Positions 32,149 to 51,581 of a stretch of 51,581 nt of DNA are shown in pieces. The stretch is from positions 1 through 51,581 of the forward strand of contig JAWAFI010000004.1 of NCBI GenBank assembly GCA_038890615.1, read 5' to 3'. Positions within the stretch are counted from its first letter, which is position 1, and each line of letters begins with the position of its first letter. The stretch is from Candidatus Anstonellales archaeon (GTDB lineage Archaea; Micrarchaeota; Micrarchaeia; Anstonellales; J096). The notes beneath the pieces were generated by a model, which saw only the letters and a program-made list of their open reading frames with translations, made no database searches and was not told the DNA's origin. Made by a program: the position numbers and the translations under genes.

Positions 32149-33137
32149 GAATCCTTAAGCAGGACAAAAATAAGAATTTAACAGTTCTCCTCATTGACAC
32201 TCCTGATGACTTGTGGTACCTTTCCAAAATCCTGAAGAAAGGAGATAAGGTGAGCGGCACAACCTTCCGCACAATAGCCCTTGAGTCAGGGGAGAAGGAT
32301 AGGAAGAAGGTTTGGGTTGAGCTTATCCTCTCTTCCATCAAGTTCCAAAAATATTCCAATGAGCTAACGCTCACTGGGGAAATAATTGCAGGGAGCCCAG
32401 AAGAGTATGTGCAGAAAGGGCGCCAGCAGAACATAAACCTAAGGGTGGAGGACTCAATAGGGATCGTTAAAGAGTGGGGCAATTATGAGAAGGACCTTCT
32501 AAAGCGCGCAGTAGAGAGCGCAAAGCGGAAGGTTGCCTATGCTGTCCTTTTGGACGACCGCTCTGCGTATTGCTGCTGGCTTAGGGAAATAGGCATTGAA
32601 GAGGATGCCCCTATTTACTTAGAAGGGAGCAAAAGGGCTGGTGATTATGAGAAGAAGCAGAAGGAATTCTTTGATGAGCTTTACAAACGAATCTCAGATA
32701 AGGAGATAGTTATAGTAGGGGGGCCGGGCTTCTCTGCAAGCCAGTTCCTTTCCTACATAGAGCAGAAGAAAAAGCCGCCTATAATACAGGCAAAAGCTTC
32801 TTCTGCTGATATAACAGGCTTAAGAGAGCTCATTTCAAACAATCCAAATCTTTTAAAGGAGGCCTCTGCCTTGCGCGAGGATGCTTTGCTCCAGCAGTTC
32901 CTGCTTGGGCTTCAAAAAGGAGGGGTTGTTTACGGCCTTGAGGAAGTAAAGAACGCAGTGGAGCAGAAGAACGTTAAGCTGATCTTAGTCCATCATTCCC
33001 TACTTGAAGAGAGCCAAATACGCGATGTTCTTGAAAGAGCTGAGAGGGAGGCAAAGGCAGAGGTTGCAGTCCTTTCAGACAGCCCTGCTGGAGACCAGCT
33101 TAAGCATTTTGGGATTGTTGCTTTTCTCTATTATTAG
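32145..33137 (+). CDS. pelA: mRNA surveillance protein Pelota
   Basis: DDLWYL, GGPGF, YGLEEV; eRF1-like three-domain size. Confidence 0.9.
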   Translation: MRILKQDKNKNLTVLLIDTPDDLWYLSKILKKGDKVSGTTFRTIALESGEKDRKKVWVELILSSIKFQKYSNELTLTGEIIAGSPEEYVQKGRQQNINLRVEDSIGIVKEWGNYEKDLLKRAVESAKRKVAYAVLLDDRSAYCCWLREIGIEEDAPIYLEGSKRAGDYEKKQKEFFDELYKRISDKEIVIVGGPGFSASQFLSYIEQKKKPPIIQAKASSADITGLRELISNNPNLLKEASALREDALLQQFLLGLQKGGVVYGLEEVKNAVEQKNVKLILVHHSLLEESQIRDVLERAEREAKAEVAVLSDSPAGDQLKHFGIVAFLYY

Positions 33138-34074
33138 AATCTAAAAGAACTTTTAATACTTCAGTTTTACCGTATTTTGAGGCGAACATCATTGCAGTCC
33201 ATCCTTTGTATGGCCCCTCTTTTACAGCGACATTCACATCAGCCCCTGCTTCAATCAATAGCTTTGCTACATCTGCGTGGCCACTCCAAGCAGCCCTTAT
33301 CAAAGCTGTTTCGCCCCACTTATTTGCTGTGTTAACATCTGCCCCTGCCTTAATGAGCATATCTACTATTTCAACATGCCCTTCATCAGATGCAAGCATT
33401 AGAGGAGTCCATCCTTCCATCATGCCTGCCCTTTTTAGGACAAAGTTGGCATTTGCCCCTGCTTCTAAAAGAGCTTTTGCTACTTTTTCCCTCCCTCTCT
33501 TTGAAGCTACCATCAAGGGGCTCCATCTGAACCAATACCCACTTCCAATAAGCTTGTTAACATCTGCCCCTAGCTCTATAAGTTTTGCAACCATTAAGTC
33601 ATCACCATTTTCAGATGCTATTGCAATAGGAGTCCATCCTTTATGCTTCCCCCCTGCTTCGCAGTTTACATCTGCCCCTGCCTTTGCGAGCGCTTCAACT
33701 ACACGTAATCTTCCATTCTCTACAGCGGCAACAATAGGCTCTAAGCCTTTATATTCGCCTTTTTTCATAACCTCAGTTAGCCTTGCTCCTTCAGAGATGA
33801 GCGTTATCACCTTTTTCAAATCCCCCTCTGCGCTCTTTTCTACAAGCTCAAGGCCCATTTTTTTTGCGTTCCTTCTACTGGCTACTCGATTTTTCTTGTT
33901 GATTGCTTTCAGCTTATCAAATGCTTCCTTGCCTTCCTTTCCCTCTTCAATGGCTTTGAGTGCCATTTCTGCTACTTCCGCAGCTTCTTTCGTCCTTTCC
34001 TCGTCTAATACTTTTTTTGTTAGCTTAACCTCAAAAATTCGCTGTATCATTGACTTCTTTTTTTCTTTATTCAT
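33100..34074 (-). CDS. Ankyrin repeat protein
   Basis: Repeated GADVN...GWTP/GWTA units. ATG at 34074 has GGTGG upstream; the track uses GTG 34083. Confidence 0.9.
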   Translation of the reverse strand: MNKEKKKSMIQRIFEVKLTKKVLDEERTKEAAEVAEMALKAIEEGKEGKEAFDKLKAINKKNRVASRRNAKKMGLELVEKSAEGDLKKVITLISEGARLTEVMKKGEYKGLEPIVAAVENGRLRVVEALAKAGADVNCEAGGKHKGWTPIAIASENGDDLMVAKLIELGADVNKLIGSGYWFRWSPLMVASKRGREKVAKALLEAGANANFVLKRAGMMEGWTPLMLASDEGHVEIVDMLIKAGADVNTANKWGETALIRAAWSGHADVAKLLIEAGADVNVAVKEGPYKGWTAMMFASKYGKTEVLKVLLDSNNREKQQSQNA

Positions 34075-34123
34075 ATTTTCCACCTTTTCTGAATGACAAA
34101 TTACTTGCGTTTTTATCCCTTCT

Positions 34124-34148: not shown

Positions 34149-34228
34149 CTAAAACCTTTTAATACTTTATTTATCTTCAAATTCTTTATACGCAATCTTT
34201 ATATTTTTAATTAATGCCCAATCTTATT

Positions 34229-34741
34229 ATGCGCCTCTTTGTCGCCATTGATCTCCCCCCTTATATGAAGGATGCAATCTACTCCTCTCTTTATCACCTG
34301 TTGCCTTCGCAAGCCAGGGTTGTGCCTAAGGAAAACTTTCACATTACCCTGCATTTTATTGGCGAAAGGGATGAAAGCGAGCTTTCAGAGATAAACAAAA
34401 GGCTTTCATCCATATCCTTCTACAAGTTTCATATAGAGGTTTATGGGACAGGTGTTTTTCCCAACCCAGCCAGGCCAAGGGTGCTCTGGATAGGTGCTAA
34501 TGCCAATGAGCTTCCTATCCTTGCCTCCAGCATAGTTTCGTCACTTGGCTCTACTTCTGAAGAGCCTTTTGTAGGTCACATAACCTTGGCAAGGCTGAAC
34601 CATTGGGCAGATGTTTCAGGGTTTCTTTCCCAAAAGCCATCATTCGGCTCCTTTTCACCCTCGTCCTTCACTTTAAAGCAAAGCATTTTCTCTGGAGGCG
34701 GAGTAACCTACACAAACCTTTTTAACTATTCCTTGCTCTAA
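34229..34741 (+). CDS. thpR: RNA 2',3'-cyclic phosphodiesterase (2H family)
   Basis: MRLFVAI start, two HITL motifs, GVFPN..RPRVLW. Confidence 0.92.
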   Translation: MRLFVAIDLPPYMKDAIYSSLYHLLPSQARVVPKENFHITLHFIGERDESELSEINKRLSSISFYKFHIEVYGTGVFPNPARPRVLWIGANANELPILASSIVSSLGSTSEEPFVGHITLARLNHWADVSGFLSQKPSFGSFSPSSFTLKQSIFSGGGVTYTNLFNYSLL

Positions 34742-34744
34742 ATT

Positions 34745-34806
34745 TTCAGTGATGACAGAGGTGATCGCTGAGCATTGCCATGATGATAGATGGGCTGTCT
34801 GAGTAA
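34745..34806 (+). ncRNA. Box C/D guide sRNA
   Basis: C box GTGATGA 34749-55; 12-nt guide; D' CTGA 34768-71; C' ATGATGA 34780-86; 12-nt guide; D CTGA 34799-802. All four boxes match consensus with canonical archaeal spacing. Confidence 0.9.
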
Positions 34807-34844: not shown

Positions 34845-34919
34845 GCTCCTGTAGTCTAGCCCGGACAAGGATACTGGCCTTTCGAGCCAGAGACCCGGGT
34901 TCAAATCCCGGCAGGAGCA
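34845..34919 (+). tRNA. tRNA-Glu(UUC)
   Basis: Acceptor GCTCCTG/CAGGAGC, anticodon arm CTGGC-CT-TTC-GA-GCCAG, T arm GGTTCAAATCC; TTATAAA about 30 nt upstream. Confidence 0.96.
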
Positions 34920-34930
34920 CTGGTGGTAAA

Positions 34931-41268: not shown

Positions 41269-41527
41269 GTGGGCATCCCGGATAGCTGGTGCCTCCCTAT
41301 GCAGAGCCTTCTCCCATTGCCTCCCTGCTCTTGTCTTCCAAGCACGCTGTCTGCAGCTTAGGGCTGCTCCTTTCGGCCTGACCCGTTTCACTGCAGAAAG
41401 CGCCGTGAAAGGGAGCAGATCCACAGCTCCGGGAGGGGATGCATTGAAAGGCATTCAACACCCCGGGCATTCGGCCCGCCTGAAGGGGATTTGCGGTAAA
41501 GGGCCCCCTAGCCCCAGCCTAGCCCAC
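41269..41527 (-). ncRNA. ffs: Signal recognition particle (7S) RNA
   Basis: Terminal helix GUGGGC/GCCCAC, 5' Alu-like domain, long helix 5, helix 8 motif GGGUCAGGCC-GAAA-GGAGCAGCCC. Confidence 0.93.
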
Positions 41528-43944: not shown

Positions 43945-46800
43945 TAGCTGTATGCTTAGCCCTTTAGTTGTGGCAGGCTGAAAAGCTCGCCGAAGCTTGC
44001 TTCTTACACCTCCACTCTATCTAACCCATCTGCTATGGGCGGGCTATGGTGCGTCGTCTTGGGAATGGCTTCGAGCTTAGATGCTTTCAGCTCTTATCCA
44101 TGTGGGGCGTAGCTGCCCGGCGCCCCCTTTTGAAGGACCGGTAAACCAGTGGCCCCGAAACCTCGTTCCTCTCGTACTAAAGGTTCCTTACCCTCACGCA
44201 CCAACGCTCCTAGCAGATACTACCGTACTGTCTCGCGACGTACTGAACCCAGCTCATGTGGGTCTTTAATGGATGAACAACCCAACCCTTGGCCGCTCCT
44301 GCACGACCAGGATGACCCAAGCCGACAGCGATGTACCAAACCGCGGGGTCGATGTGTACTCTCACCCGCGACGAGCCTGTTACCCCCGGGGTAACTTGTC
44401 TGCCAGATTAGGGCCTCATCACAAGGCCTCTAATGTTCTCTAGGCCCCTCTTTCGAGCCTGCATCCCACGCTTTTAGGGATACAGTCAGCCCTGCATTTG
44501 TCCTTCGCCCTCTACGGCGGATTTCTGACCCGCCTGAGCAGAGCATAGGGCACCCTTGTTGCTTTTTCGAGGGTGTACCGCCCCAGCCGAACTACCCATC
44601 TGCTGCTGTCCATTTCTGTGAGTAGCACAAACAGAACTAAGTGGTGTTTCACTTTCCCCTCCGCAGCTCCCGGAAGAACTGCATCGACGGGTCCCACTTA
44701 CTCTCGGTAGCCCCGCTCGTACTACAACAACAGACTGTAGTGAAGCTCCACGGGGTCTTCGTTTCCCGCTAGGAGTCCCCGGCATCTTCACCGGGCAGTG
44801 ATTTCACCAGGTCCAAACTAGGGACAGTGGGAGAGTCGTTACGCCATTCATGCAAGCCGCCAATTAAGCGGCGAGGTATTACGCTACCTTAAGAGGGTCA
44901 GAGTTACCCCCGCTCTTTACCAGCCCTTCTTCCCCTTGGATGGGGCTTTCAGGTACTGGCAGTGAGCAGGCGTCAGCCACCGTACACAGCCTTTCGGCTT
45001 TGCGGTGACCTGTGTTTTTGGTAAACAGTCGCTCTCCCCTTGTTACTGAGACCTGCCCTTTCAACAAGAGCAGGCACCCCTTCTCCTATAAGTTACGGGG
45101 CCAACATGCCGAATTCCCTTAGTCTGGTTCTCCTGACTCGCCTTAGCCTTCTCAGCTAGGGGCACCTGTACTGGTTCTTGGTACGAGCATTAAGGTTCGC
45201 TTTCTGCGTCCTTTTCAAGGGCTCCTGGCCTCAGGCAACTTGCGTGATTGGGCCTTTAGTCGGCTTCTCCTCATTATGAGACTCGACTGACCTATGGCCC
45301 TTCAACAGCAGAGCTGCTTGCCCTAGCCGGAAGCGTCAGACACAGAACTTTCTGTTGCCAGACCTACCTTAATGGGACAGGAATATTAACCTGTTTCCCT
45401 TTCGGACTTTCGGATTTACCTGAGTCCTTAGGATCGCCTAACCCTTGGCTGACAAACGTTGCCAAGGAACCCTTGCCCCTTCGGCGCCATGGATTCTCAC
45501 CATGGAATCGCTGCTACTAACACCAAGATATTTATTCCGACTGAGTCCACAAGAGCTCACGCCCTTGCTTCTGCCCCAGCCGGACACTCCCCTACTCCAA
45601 TCCTTTCGGATGGGCTAGGTATCGGGAGTTGGCTTAGTCCCGTGTATTTTGGGATCCTGTTTCCTAGGTTGGTCCGCTATTACGCGTTGCTTAGAGGATG
45701 GCTGCTTCTAAGCCTACCTCCCAACTGTATTAGGAAAGAAGATCCTTCCGAACACTTAGCCAACATTTAGGGCCCTTAACCCAGCGTACGGTCGTTTCCG
45801 TAAGGGCTTACAGGCTTACCCCGTAAAACCCGACTGCCGCCTTCTACGGAGCTAGTATGTTCGGAGTTTGAAAGGAAAGTGACCCCTTTCGAGGCCATTA
45901 TTTCCTATCAGTGCTCTACCATACCACCGTCCTCCAGCGACGCTGTCCTGAGAGACATTTCGGAGAGAACCCGCTATCCCCTGGTTCGAGTGGCCTATCA
46001 CCCCTAGACCAGTCTCACCTAAGCAGATATACTAGCACTAGTTGCTGGCCTCCACCACCTGTCAGGGTGGCTTAACCATGGACTGGTTTAGATCACCAGG
46101 ATTCGGGTCTGCTGTGTGTGATTAATCCCCAGTTAAGAGGACGCGCCTCGTTGCCTGCGCGCACTCGCTTTCGCTTCGCCTTTCGGCTCACCACACACAA
46201 TAACTCCTTGGCACTTGCTTCGAGAAGTACGTAAGAACACCGGTTCATGCGCATCGCTTTGCTCCTCTCGAAGCATCGCTTCTGCGCACTTCATTCCTTC
46301 CATGCCCTTACGAACTGTGACCATGCAGTTTCAGGTCCTTTTGACTCCGGTACCTCCGGAGCTTTTCAGCTTTCGCTCGCGCTACTAGTTCGCTATCGGT
46401 CTGCCTACGATATTTAGGCTTGGAAGATGATTCTCCCATCTTCATGCGCTCGTCCCGGAGCGCACTACTCAAGACCCTCTCCTCTTTCCTTCCCTTACAG
46501 GGCTTTCACCTCCTGTGGCGCTGCTTTCCAGCAGACTTCAGGTCAGAAAGAGGAATTCACATCTCCCTGAAAGTTGCCAATCAGGGATTCGGGATAGCCT
46601 TTTTGGGGTTCACTCGCGTTACTACCCAAATCTCTATTGATTTCTTTTCCTCCGGCTACTAAGATCCTTCTCTTCGCCGGGTGCTTGCCCTATCCTGGGT
46701 TCTCAGCTTGCGTGCAGCTAGCCCAGGCTTATCGCAGCTTGCCGCGGGGCAGATAGGCAGCCAAGCCATCCACTGCATGGTGTGAAGATGCATACAGCTA
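43945..46800 (-). rRNA. rrl: 23S rRNA, unlinked (ends approximate)
   Basis: Sarcin-ricin loop AGUACGAGAGGAAC, P-loop CUGGGGCGG, GAAGACCCCGUGGAGC, H69 region CUCUUAAGGUAGCG; complementary flanks 43941-43955 and 46790-46804. Confidence 0.97.
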
Positions 46801-48077: not shown

Positions 48078-48689
48078 ATGGACTATAGCCCATATGCATC
48101 TGTTAAGTATGAATTGCCTAAGCTTGAGTATGCTTATAACGCCCTTGAGCCAGTTATCTCTGCCAGGACTCTTGAATTGCATTATTCAAAGCACCATGCC
48201 GCCTATGTTAACGGCGCAAATGCAGCAGCAGAAAAGCTATCCAAGGCATACAAGGGTGAAGATATTGATGTTAAAGCAGCTATGCGCGATCTAAGCTTCA
48301 ACCTTAATGGCCACATACTTCATTCTCTCTTTTGGGAAAGCATGCGCACTCCTGTTGATAATAATTTCCCTGAGGGCGAAACAGAAGAAGCTATTAGAAA
48401 GGTTTTTGGCTCGTTTGATTCATTCAAGAAAGTTTTCAGCACAGCGGCGAAAAGCGTTGAGGGGAGTGGATGGGCTGCGCTCATAGCAAATGGCCAAGAC
48501 CTTCAAGTAATCCAGATTGAGAAGCACAACCTTCTATACCTAAACGGCTACAATATGCTCCTAGTTTTAGATGTATGGGAGCATGCATATTACTTAGATT
48601 ACCAAAACAACAGGAGTCAATTTGTTGACAGCTGGTGGAAGCTAGCCAACTGGGGCAAAGTGGAAAAAAGGCTCAAAGATATTCAATAG
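48078..48689 (+). CDS. sod: Fe/Mn superoxide dismutase
   Basis: LHYSKHH, NGHILHSLFW, GSGW, DVWEHAYY. Confidence 0.96.
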   Translation: MDYSPYASVKYELPKLEYAYNALEPVISARTLELHYSKHHAAYVNGANAAAEKLSKAYKGEDIDVKAAMRDLSFNLNGHILHSLFWESMRTPVDNNFPEGETEEAIRKVFGSFDSFKKVFSTAAKSVEGSGWAALIANGQDLQVIQIEKHNLLYLNGYNMLLVLDVWEHAYYLDYQNNRSQFVDSWWKLANWGKVEKRLKDIQ

Positions 48690-49518
48690 CCTTTTTGGCT
48701 GTTTTCTTATCGCAGACCATAAGGCTGTAAAGCAGGGCAAACTCCTTCTCTTTTCTTGATGCCAGGGCTGGAAACAGCCTTACCTTCCTTGCGCTTTTAA
48801 TAAACATTTTCTCATAATTCCTGATTTCTTTCACAATCTCTTTGCTAAATTTTTTCTCTTCTATTATGTCTGAAAGCAGTTTCCCTTCAGTCTCAATAAA
48901 TGGGTTAGCGTAGTGGCTCTCAAGGTACTTTATGCATTCCATGCTTTCATTTACTGCTGCTTCATATAGAGCAGTTAAGCCTACATCATCAGTGGAATTT
49001 GGGTTTGCGCCTTCTTCAAGAAGCATTTTAACTATTTTTTCTTTCTTGTGGGCTGCTGCCTTTATCAGTGCATCCCTACCTTGATCAACTGATGCAATCA
49101 CATGCTTAGGAAGCTCTATCTTCTTTTGAAGGTCTGCTCCTGCGTTTATCAAAAGCCTTACCAATGCTTCAGAATCTCTAAAGATTGCCAATATAATAAC
49201 AGGATAGCCGCTTACCTCCTTTTCCACTGCATTTGGGTCAGCGCCTTGGAGCAGGGCATTGAAAACACCCTTCTCAGAGCTGTTTGTTACCTCTTCAATA
49301 AGCTTCTTATCTACATCCTCCCTTTCCCTTTCGCTTAAGTTTTCCCTTCTTTCCCTGTTAAGAGCGCGGAAAGCATATCTAAGCTCTTCGCTGCATTTTT
49401 TTGATAATGCATTAAAAAGGCGCTCTTCATCGCTAAAGCAATTTTCAGCAAGTGGGCTTGAAAAGCGCCCCTCTTTTTTTGGCTTTTCCTCTTGAATTCC
49501 TTCCTTCAGCTTTTTCAT
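48673..49518 (-). CDS. Ankyrin repeat protein
   Basis: GADPN, GRDALIKAA, GANPN..GLTALYEAA. Confidence 0.85.
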   Translation of the reverse strand: MKKLKEGIQEEKPKKEGRFSSPLAENCFSDEERLFNALSKKCSEELRYAFRALNRERRENLSEREREDVDKKLIEEVTNSSEKGVFNALLQGADPNAVEKEVSGYPVIILAIFRDSEALVRLLINAGADLQKKIELPKHVIASVDQGRDALIKAAAHKKEKIVKMLLEEGANPNSTDDVGLTALYEAAVNESMECIKYLESHYANPFIETEGKLLSDIIEEKKFSKEIVKEIRNYEKMFIKSARKVRLFPALASRKEKEFALLYSLMVCDKKTAKKAIEYL

Positions 49519-49551: not shown

Positions 49552-49645
49552 TGCAGGGAGTGGGATTCGAACCCACGTAGCCACTAAGGCACCAGATTGC
49601 CCGAACCCTTGAGTCTGGCGCGTTTGGCCGCTCCGCCATCCCTGC
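49552..49645 (-). tRNA. tRNA-Leu(CAA) with a 10-nt intron at 37/38 (intron 49598-49607)
   Basis: Acceptor GCAGGGA/TCCCTGC; anticodon arm CCAGA-CT-CAA-G[GGTTCGGGCA]A-TCTGG; long variable arm; T arm GGTTCGAATCC. Confidence 0.92.
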
Positions 49646-50187: not shown

Positions 50188-51063
50188 CTAACTATTTATT
50201 AAAATATCTATAACATCTGCGACCATTTTGTCACATTTAGTTAACATAAATTTTATTGCATTTTCCATAAACTCTTTATCCTTTTCATTTAATTTTTCCC
50301 ACACTTTTTTCTCATTAACCAAATTTTTTATTTTTTTATTTAAAGCAAACATATAATCCTTTAGTATATTCTTTATTTCTTCATCACCATTATCACACGC
50401 ACAATCATATGCTGTTTTCCCGCTAGCATTAACAACAAATAGATTAGCATTATATTTTATAAATAAATTAACAAGGGGTTTACTTTTAAAAGCAACAGCA
50501 TGCATCAGTGGAGTAAAGTTGTAAGGAGTACCAACATCAACACAAGCGCCTGCTTTCAAAAGTATTTCAAGTGCTTCTGGTGGGTTTGGTTGGCAGCAGC
50601 CTACCATCTCATAAAGAATAGAGTTTCCACCATGGATCTTTGCATTTACATCAGCACCTGCTTCTACAAGTATCTTAATGCACTCAACATTAATATAGCC
50701 ACACCCAAAAGTACAGTATAGAGCTGTTCTTTCCATATCATCCTTAAAATTCACATCCGCCCCTTCCAAAATGAGCTTTACAACCCTTTCAATACTAGGG
50801 CTCTTTTCCTCACATTTCTCAATCAACTCTTTTCCCAACACCCTAGCCTTTTCCTCCCCTATCTCTTCCCTCCTTTCCCTGTTAATCCTCCTAAGCTCCT
50901 CAAAAGCCTCTTCATCTTCTTTCCTACTCCTAACACTCTCCAAAACCCTCCTAAATACCTCTTCCTCGCTTAGCCTCCTCTCCTCTTTCATCCCTTCCCC
51001 ACCAGCCTCTTTTTTCCCTCCTTTGCTATCAAACCCCTCCTTCTCTTTATCCTTAACCTCCAT
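50188..51063 (-). CDS. Ankyrin repeat protein
   Basis: GADVN x2, FTPLMHAV, GKTAYDCA. Confidence 0.88.
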   Translation of the reverse strand: MEVKDKEKEGFDSKGGKKEAGGEGMKEERRLSEEEVFRRVLESVRSRKEDEEAFEELRRINRERREEIGEEKARVLGKELIEKCEEKSPSIERVVKLILEGADVNFKDDMERTALYCTFGCGYINVECIKILVEAGADVNAKIHGGNSILYEMVGCCQPNPPEALEILLKAGACVDVGTPYNFTPLMHAVAFKSKPLVNLFIKYNANLFVVNASGKTAYDCACDNGDEEIKNILKDYMFALNKKIKNLVNEKKVWEKLNEKDKEFMENAIKFMLTKCDKMVADVIDILINS

Positions 51064-51094: not shown

Positions 51095-51581
51095 CTAACT
51101 GCCCAGCATTTTCTCAATAAATATCTTTGCTTTCTTCTTATTGCATTCCTTAAGCGAAAACCTCAGTTGAGCCTCCCTTTTCATCCTCTTCTTAACCCTT
51201 TTATCCATCTTATCAACCAAGCCTTTCAAAAAACTCTTAGTTTTTTCATTTTCAGCCAAGCCCATTGCTGTTTTTCCTTTATTATTTTTCAAAAAAGGAT
51301 TTGCGCCATTGTCAATCAGCAACTTAAGAACTTCTTTTTCGTTACTCTCAGCAGCATACATCAGCGCAGTCTTTCCATCATTATCCTGCAAATCCACCTT
51401 AGCCCCAGCCTTTATCAGCATCTCAAGAACCCCCTTATGCCCATACCAAGCAGCCCACATCAGCGCAGTCTCTCCATCATTATCCTTCACATTCACATCC
51501 GCCCCTTTTTCAATCAATTCCTTTGCCAACCCATCCAGCCCTCCACAAGCAGCACATATAAGCATACTCATTCCATCCTTT
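51095..51581 (-). CDS. Ankyrin repeat protein, 5' end beyond the window
   Basis: GADVNVKDNDGETALMWAA, DNDGKTALMYAA; the frame stays open to the window edge. Confidence 0.9.
   Translation of the reverse strand, partial: KDGMSMLICAACGGLDGLAKELIEKGADVNVKDNDGETALMWAAWYGHKGVLEMLIKAGAKVDLQDNDGKTALMYAAESNEKEVLKLLIDNGANPFLKNNKGKTAMGLAENEKTKSFLKGLVDKMDKRVKKRMKREAQLRFSLKECNKKKAKIFIEKMLGS

Follow-up and report, generated by a model that had tools for sequence, protein, structure and literature searches.

Both guides of the sRNA considered here have their counterparts, set in the same register, in sR26 of P. furiosus (PMC4836650, PMC7089733). An inverted form of sR26 has been built, and the release of product was found to be governed by the strength of the duplex ends. 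That work used synthetic, fully complementary substrates, and 16S rRNA is mentioned not once in the accessible text of the two papers. Judged by its guides, sR26 would target C1402 and C1533 of 16S rRNA. Targets of this type are reportedly given in the early Pyrococcus screens.

A second sRNA, sR13 of N. equitans, bridges the 5' strand of helix 44 and the anti-Shine-Dalgarno (anti-SD) tail of 16S rRNA, and it has been proposed to pace the folding of the 16S 3' end and to replace KsgA (Seistrup et al., PMC5389701). Am1534 has been measured in the 16S rRNA of this organism, and methylation of the anti-SD sequence by a C/D sRNA is in this case already published. The same source reports Cm1533, measured by RiboMeth-seq, in the hyperthermophilic crenarchaeon I. 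hospitalis, with the guide stated as unknown; this is the exact position predicted below to be a target.

The other position, 1402, carries a ribose methylation in each of life's three domains (PMC7005279): m4Cm1402 in E. coli, Cm1376 in P. abyssi, Cm1639 in yeast, and Cm1703 in human (Table 4 of that paper). Its list of 44 modifications in P. abyssi, as accessible, has no Cm at the position of 1533 or elsewhere in the tail. The modification of 1402 is the work of protein alone in bacteria, whereas in the present genome a D guide is predicted to target the position. The eukaryotic guides for 1402 are, we take it, snR70 and SNORD43, and we know of no pairing of either with the tail of the rRNA.

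Double-guide sRNAs whose two targets lie more than 100 nt apart, as do those of the sRNA described here, have been suggested to serve as chaperones (Dennis et al., PMC4644070). In that survey, mismatches at the +5 position were read as pairing without methylation, and mismatched target sites were a minority (16 of 262 double guides). In the accessible portion of the survey, Table 3 does not list 1402 and 1533 as a pair, and the block of the 16S alignment that holds the tail, over seven species, is free of predicted sites. A string search through its sRNA supplement and that of PMC6009581, so far as these were available, returned no cassette combining a 1402 guide with a tail guide. In the openly accessible literature, we found no paper on a Micrarchaeota sRNA family or on the mismatch pattern described below. 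Nor did we find a publication describing duplexes kept weak or tail pairing retained and extended with a mismatch at C1533.

The window is the whole stretch of DNA that was analyzed, 51,581 nt of contig JAWAFI010000004.1 from a Candidatus Anstonellales archaeon (Micrarchaeota). A box C/D sRNA had been predicted in it from the letters alone, and comparison of sequences confirms the locus as a real gene of this kind, conserved across the phylum (Table 1). Boxes C, D', C', and D occur in that order, with both guides within 10-13 nt. Cassettes of the four boxes with zero mismatches number seven in the 846-kb genome and none in either of two shuffled genomes. The core of the sRNA begins 7 nt 3' of a LigT-like ORF and ends 42 nt 5' of a tRNA gene, and a T-rich, TATA-like stretch within the end of the upstream ORF might possibly be its own promoter. 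By eye, a weak A-U terminal stem is the most that could form (34741-45 with 34805-09), and the fold of the free RNA (z = -1.63) differs in conformation from the k-turn form. Rfam 15 has nothing at or above gathering threshold at the locus, and at 18 homologue loci the top score, to sR2, was 36.9 bits, below the threshold of 42. A reading in which the SD-like guide leads into a short ORF was rejected: the ATG, at 34780, sits 15 nt away and opens just 8 codons. Elsewhere in the window are the 23S gene (43945-46800), alone and unlinked from the 16S gene (on contig C3), an SRP RNA near it (41269-41527), and four ankyrin-repeat ORFs (33100-34083, 48673-49518, 50188-51063, and 51095-51571).

Table 1. 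Parts and surroundings of the sRNA gene, and the 23S site proposed for its D guide, in coordinates of the window
Feature	Position	Strand	Remarks
Box C/D sRNA gene	34745..34806	+	Core 34749-34802; from boxes and homologues
Box C, GTGATGA	34749..34755	+	Exact RUGAUGA
D' guide, 12 nt	34756..34767	+	Predicted antisense to 16S 1530-1538; duplex -16.3 kcal/mol
Box D', CTGA	34768..34771	+	Exact
D'-C' loop, 8 nt	34772..34779	+	Spans 3-149 nt across 96 homologues
Box C', ATGATGA	34780..34786	+	Exact RUGAUGA
D guide, 12 nt	34787..34798	+	Predicted antisense to 16S 1398-1407; duplex -14.0 kcal/mol
Box D, CTGA	34799..34802	+	Exact
T-rich, TATA-like stretch	34719..34726	+	23-30 nt 5' of box C; within end of upstream ORF
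LigT-like phosphoesterase / 2'-5' RNA ligase family ORF	34214..34741	+	Upstream neighbor; PF02834, E 7e-20
tRNA-Glu(UUC)	34845..34920	+	Downstream neighbor
23S site proposed for D guide	45609..45617	-	8 Watson-Crick pairs and 1 G-U; C at 45614

The genome encodes fibrillarin (E 6e-80), Nop5 (E 2e-46), and an L7Ae-family protein (E 8e-30), the three genes whose presence the original prediction had suggested be checked. It also encodes KsgA/Dim1 (PF00398, E 7e-37, in an open frame of 241 aa), and the idea that the sRNA replaces KsgA was rejected for this genome. The rationale offered for sR13, whose host is without KsgA/Dim1, is therefore not transferable. The two sRNAs differ in their targets as well: A1408 (D' guide) and A1534 (D guide) for sR13, as given in the accessible text, and C1402 and C1533 for the +5 bases of the window sRNA. 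The A1408 guide that N. equitans carries on sR13 is found here on a separate RNA, a second perfect C/D sRNA (C1:478867-478914, minus strand) whose guides address the two strands of the decoding site. It pairs with 16S 1404-1413 and 1493-1501, placing its +5 bases at the equivalents of A1408 and G1497. Another C/D sRNA, C3:11018-11070, has guides that pair over 10 and 12 nt with the tRNA-Leu(CAA) of the window (49552-49645), its D guide pointing to the wobble C.

The 16S gene lies on a separate contig (C3:18103-19591, minus strand) and ends ...GAUCACCUCC. Positions -2 to -10 of the D' guide form nine Watson-Crick pairs with 16S 1530-1538 (C3:18105-18113, minus), and the +5 base forms a G-C pair with C3:18110, the equivalent of E. 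coli C1533. A test for 10-12 nt of pairing with this tail had been proposed; the pairing stands, and its length is 9 nt. The tail is the best site for the D' guide among 47 stable-RNA sequences of the genome. Taken on its own, though, such a match is weak: when the guide was shuffled 5000 times, 373 of the products (7.5%) still made nine contiguous pairs somewhere within 8306 nt of stable RNA. Its significance rests instead on conservation. With conservation, the invariance of the tail, and covariation at position 1539 (all described below), the assignment of the guide to the anti-SD tail, +5 at C1533, is supported. The SD-like GGTG motifs that had been noticed before several genes of the window are evidently in use: of the 728 ORFs that reach 150 aa or more, 123 have GGTG 4-16 nt 5' of the ATG, as against 12 in a control window. 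Methylation and chaperoning of the tail are both plausible services of the D' guide.

The D guide pairs with its own 16S over 1398-1407, apart from position -3, where U faces C, and with U-G at -8; its +5 base forms a G-C pair with the equivalent of C1402 (C3:18231). In homologues the D guide is antisense to 16S 1398-1409, again with +5 at C1402. Covariation could be followed in 61 genomes with both sRNA and 16S (80 of 122 were searched, 64 matched, and 60 were fetched, to which our own was added). The guide tracks changes in 16S in 18 of 18 cases at 1404, 4 of 4 at 1405, 11 of 11 at 1406, and 3 of 4 at 1400. Over the 61 genomes, 493 of 610 positions are Watson-Crick pairs, as against 444.6 +/- 5.6 (maximum 468) in 5000 permutations, a test inflated by kinship, although several families and more than one type of base are represented among the changes.

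A pattern consisting of box C, the core of the tail guide, and box D' is present in 119 of 401 genomes of the phylum, at one locus each, and in none of the controls. Since this pattern imposes the guide core, two further tests were made. First, 96 homologue loci were retrieved, of which 93 belong to the 119 and 3 came from a DNA search, and all of them carry C' and D boxes, which the search pattern did not demand. Second, a pattern anchored on the D guide, leaving D' free, was found in 146 of the 401 genomes (control 0), and by eye the D' guide of these is of the tail type in 129 (one of them degenerate) and unrelated in 17. The guides are thus conserved, though these genome counts overstate the support, related genomes not being independent. 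One genome, G216, which is flagged as unpublished, falls within the 401, the 146, the 129, and the 43 given below and was left out of the 40; no claim depends on it alone. The DNA search, of 41 relatives with a 361-nt region, gave mostly tRNA matches, and 5 touched the sRNA.

In a scan of named genomes (at least 119 stretches), 65 of 80 loci among the matches listed are labeled Micrarchaeota or a sub-taxon, and 101 of 113 full cassettes among the matches listed have the same D guide. Four bacterial matches of the scan lacked box D and were set aside as chance. In Desulfurococcaceae, other Thermoprotei, and a single Heimdallarchaeota record there are tail guides that share the register but are joined to different partners, and such tail guides were found in 19 of 251 genomes sampled from a second phylum (that of the first hit, in Desulfurococcaceae), all with unrelated D guides. 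No 16S tail was found in the 5 genomes tried from outside the phylum. The linkage of tail and 1402 guides in one sRNA is not obligatory, given the 17 unrelated D' guides among the 146 and the 19 unrelated D guides in the second phylum.

The order of the guides differs from that of sR26, which (PMC4836650, PMC7089733, in their accessible parts) has the 1402 guide at D' and the tail guide at D. The window sRNA and the homologues found are swapped, resembling the engineered inv-sR26, and the full-cassette patterns could detect this order only. By eye, the window D' guide agrees with the sR26 D guide at 10 of 12 positions and the window D guide with the sR26 D' guide at 7 of 12. Judged by the likeness of the guides, the window sRNA may be regarded as a swapped-order counterpart of sR26.

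Several variants came to light along the way. Nineteen homologues of family f9 (L045, L048-L061, L067, L068, L074, L075) have a structured insert of 33-139 nt between D' and C'. Its internal loop, CC/UCUAAG ... CCACG/A, is conserved, and most of the inserts also form a hairpin with a GNRA-like cap. The loop presumably resembles the 11-nt tetraloop receptor, and the insert might fold the RNA or dimerize it. In 12 genomes of the second phylum (L321-L332), the D' guide complements the SD-type sequence in full, and its own 5' half can pair with the D guide (-7.6 to -10.4 kcal/mol, base changes in the two matching); these RNAs may mask their own SD-like segment. Finally, an expressed sRNA of I. hospitalis, IHOsR305 (supplement 1 of PMC4644070), contains the 12-nt tail guide of L144, L187, and L199. 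It has no clear box D' after the guide, and it is a candidate for the missing guide to Cm1533.

The most informative departures are those in which a +5 pair is lost. In 40 genomes (31 of family f13 and 9 of f14), the guide has an A opposite C1533, and C1533 itself is retained in all 31 of these genomes in which the 16S tail was found. Every one of the 40 guides has G at -10, a base found there in 11 of the 94 guides of canonical type. Position -11 in family f13 tracks 16S position 1539 (17 U-A, 5 C-G, and 2 U-G; n = 24), and in f14 it pairs with 1539 in only 3 of 7. For 14 of the C1533-mismatch guides, analyzed by script, the tail is the best site in the available 16S fragment (149 to 1526 nt), with a mean of -11.5 kcal/mol. 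The covariation with 1539 in f13 is the only tail covariation available from these alignments, and it arises where methylation should fail. By eye, the +5 pair is absent at D in 13 of the 129 tail-type sRNAs, at D' in 43, and at both in none. The comparative pattern hints that pairing is selected apart from methylation. The 16S of f13 and f14 also deviates from the near-universal sequence of 1400-1406 (U1404, A1405, C or G1406, U1400), and its tail is often one C short at the end. Separately, 12 genomes (f16, f17, f20, f31, f33) retain a 1402 guide mismatched to C1402 although the D' guide next to it is an unrelated one.

The duplexes are also weaker than they could be. Canonical 16S is present in 38 of the genomes (11 families), and in not one of them is the D guide perfect from -2 to -9: a single mismatch is seen in 33 and more than one in 5, at seven different positions. 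The mismatch is at C1402 itself in 11 of the 61 genomes compared. With variant 16S, the D guide is unbroken in 14 of 23. The mean D duplex on canonical 16S is -14.7 kcal/mol, against -22.7 for a perfect 11-mer, and the mean D' duplex is -13.6, against -20.5. The tail duplex is 8 bp in most relatives, and the full 10-nt SD complement occurs in 0 of 96 homologues, as against 14 of the 19 tail guides in the second phylum.

Perhaps the sRNA is simply an ordinary guide for double methylation of C1402 and C1533, its mismatches the product of drift and its guides with +5 mismatches either decaying or methylating by way of an A-C wobble. Most mismatches are indeed A opposite C, a single transition, and at least one +5 pair persists in each of the 129 tail-type sRNAs. 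The unbroken guides on variant 16S fit this explanation too, as does the minority of mismatched sites already known among double guides. Drift, however, should leave perfect guides, and on canonical 16S there are none. Strong duplexes are permitted, as other guides of this genome reach -21 to -24 kcal/mol. Moreover, the C1533-mismatch guides, far from decaying, have acquired an extra pair at -10 and show covariation at -11. On balance we hold an ordinary guide to be rather unlikely.

Much less probable is a D guide retargeted in this genome to C45614 of 23S rRNA, a site to which the original prediction had drawn attention. The pairing exists, and with nine contiguous pairs and -15.9 kcal/mol, against -14.0 for the 16S site, it is the best single site for the D guide here. 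But it falls in a variable stretch, and when aligned in family members (4 found of 5 searched) it fails in all four to pair with the guide of the same genome. The losses include G002, which has a nearly identical guide, and G006, in which the guide tracks a change in the 16S of that genome. The mismatch at -3 that weakens the 16S duplex is common, occurring in 8 of 12 family-f1 genomes compared. We judge the 23S pairing to be a chance match. On comparative grounds, the conserved, covarying target of the D guide is 16S C1402, and the predicted targets are corrected to 16S C1533 and C1402, away from 23S. Least credible is an SD mimic that binds mature 30S subunits and damps the initiation of translation: the commonest SD motifs of the genome do lie within the D' guide, but each of the four boxes is intact, the tail guide is in +5 register, none of the 96 homologues has the full SD complement, and the strand targeted by the D guide is, by the established structure, buried in the mature 30S. 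An analogy with the acetylation guides snR45 and U13 was set aside, since the cytidine of helix 45 is flanked by neither guide.

It seems reasonably likely, then, that the window sRNA is a dual guide that binds both edges of the 3' minor domain of 16S, methylating and clamping it, with duplexes weak enough for release. We infer that it is expressed and that it would assemble with L7Ae, Nop5, and fibrillarin. The resulting sRNP would bind immature 16S through its D guide at 1398-1407 (the entry to helix 44, at the P site) and through its D' guide at 1530-1538. Since both +5 bases are paired in this genome, the product would most likely be Cm1533 and, less efficiently, Cm1402. While bound, the sRNP would keep the decoding strand and the tail unavailable, and the weakness of both duplexes would then allow it to leave. 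The site of the C1402 guide overlaps that of the second decoding-site sRNA (C1:478867-478914), so the two would have to bind in turn, which would favor a weak first duplex. Since KsgA is present, the clamp would add to the KsgA checkpoint rather than replace it.

For the family as a whole, we suggest more tentatively that the conserved job may be the clamp itself, which during late assembly of the 30S subunit would hide the anti-SD tail, together with the strand of the P site, until release. Methylation at either site would be dispensable, and a mismatch of shifting position would confine the duplex strength to a narrow range. This might well be the native role of sR26.

Studies of single genomes have led to the idea of rRNA chaperoning by archaeal C/D sRNAs (PMC4644070, PMC5389701), a role that is hard to separate from methylation. 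The present family offers natural separation-of-function alleles, in which pairing with the tail is kept, extended, and covarying while the +5 pair at C1533 is lost; other lineages show the same for C1402. The guides match those of sR26, the standard substrate of C/D work in vitro, and this makes the idea testable in existing reconstituted systems. If the clamp is real, these archaea would possess an RNA-based checkpoint of ribosome maturation, working beside KsgA.
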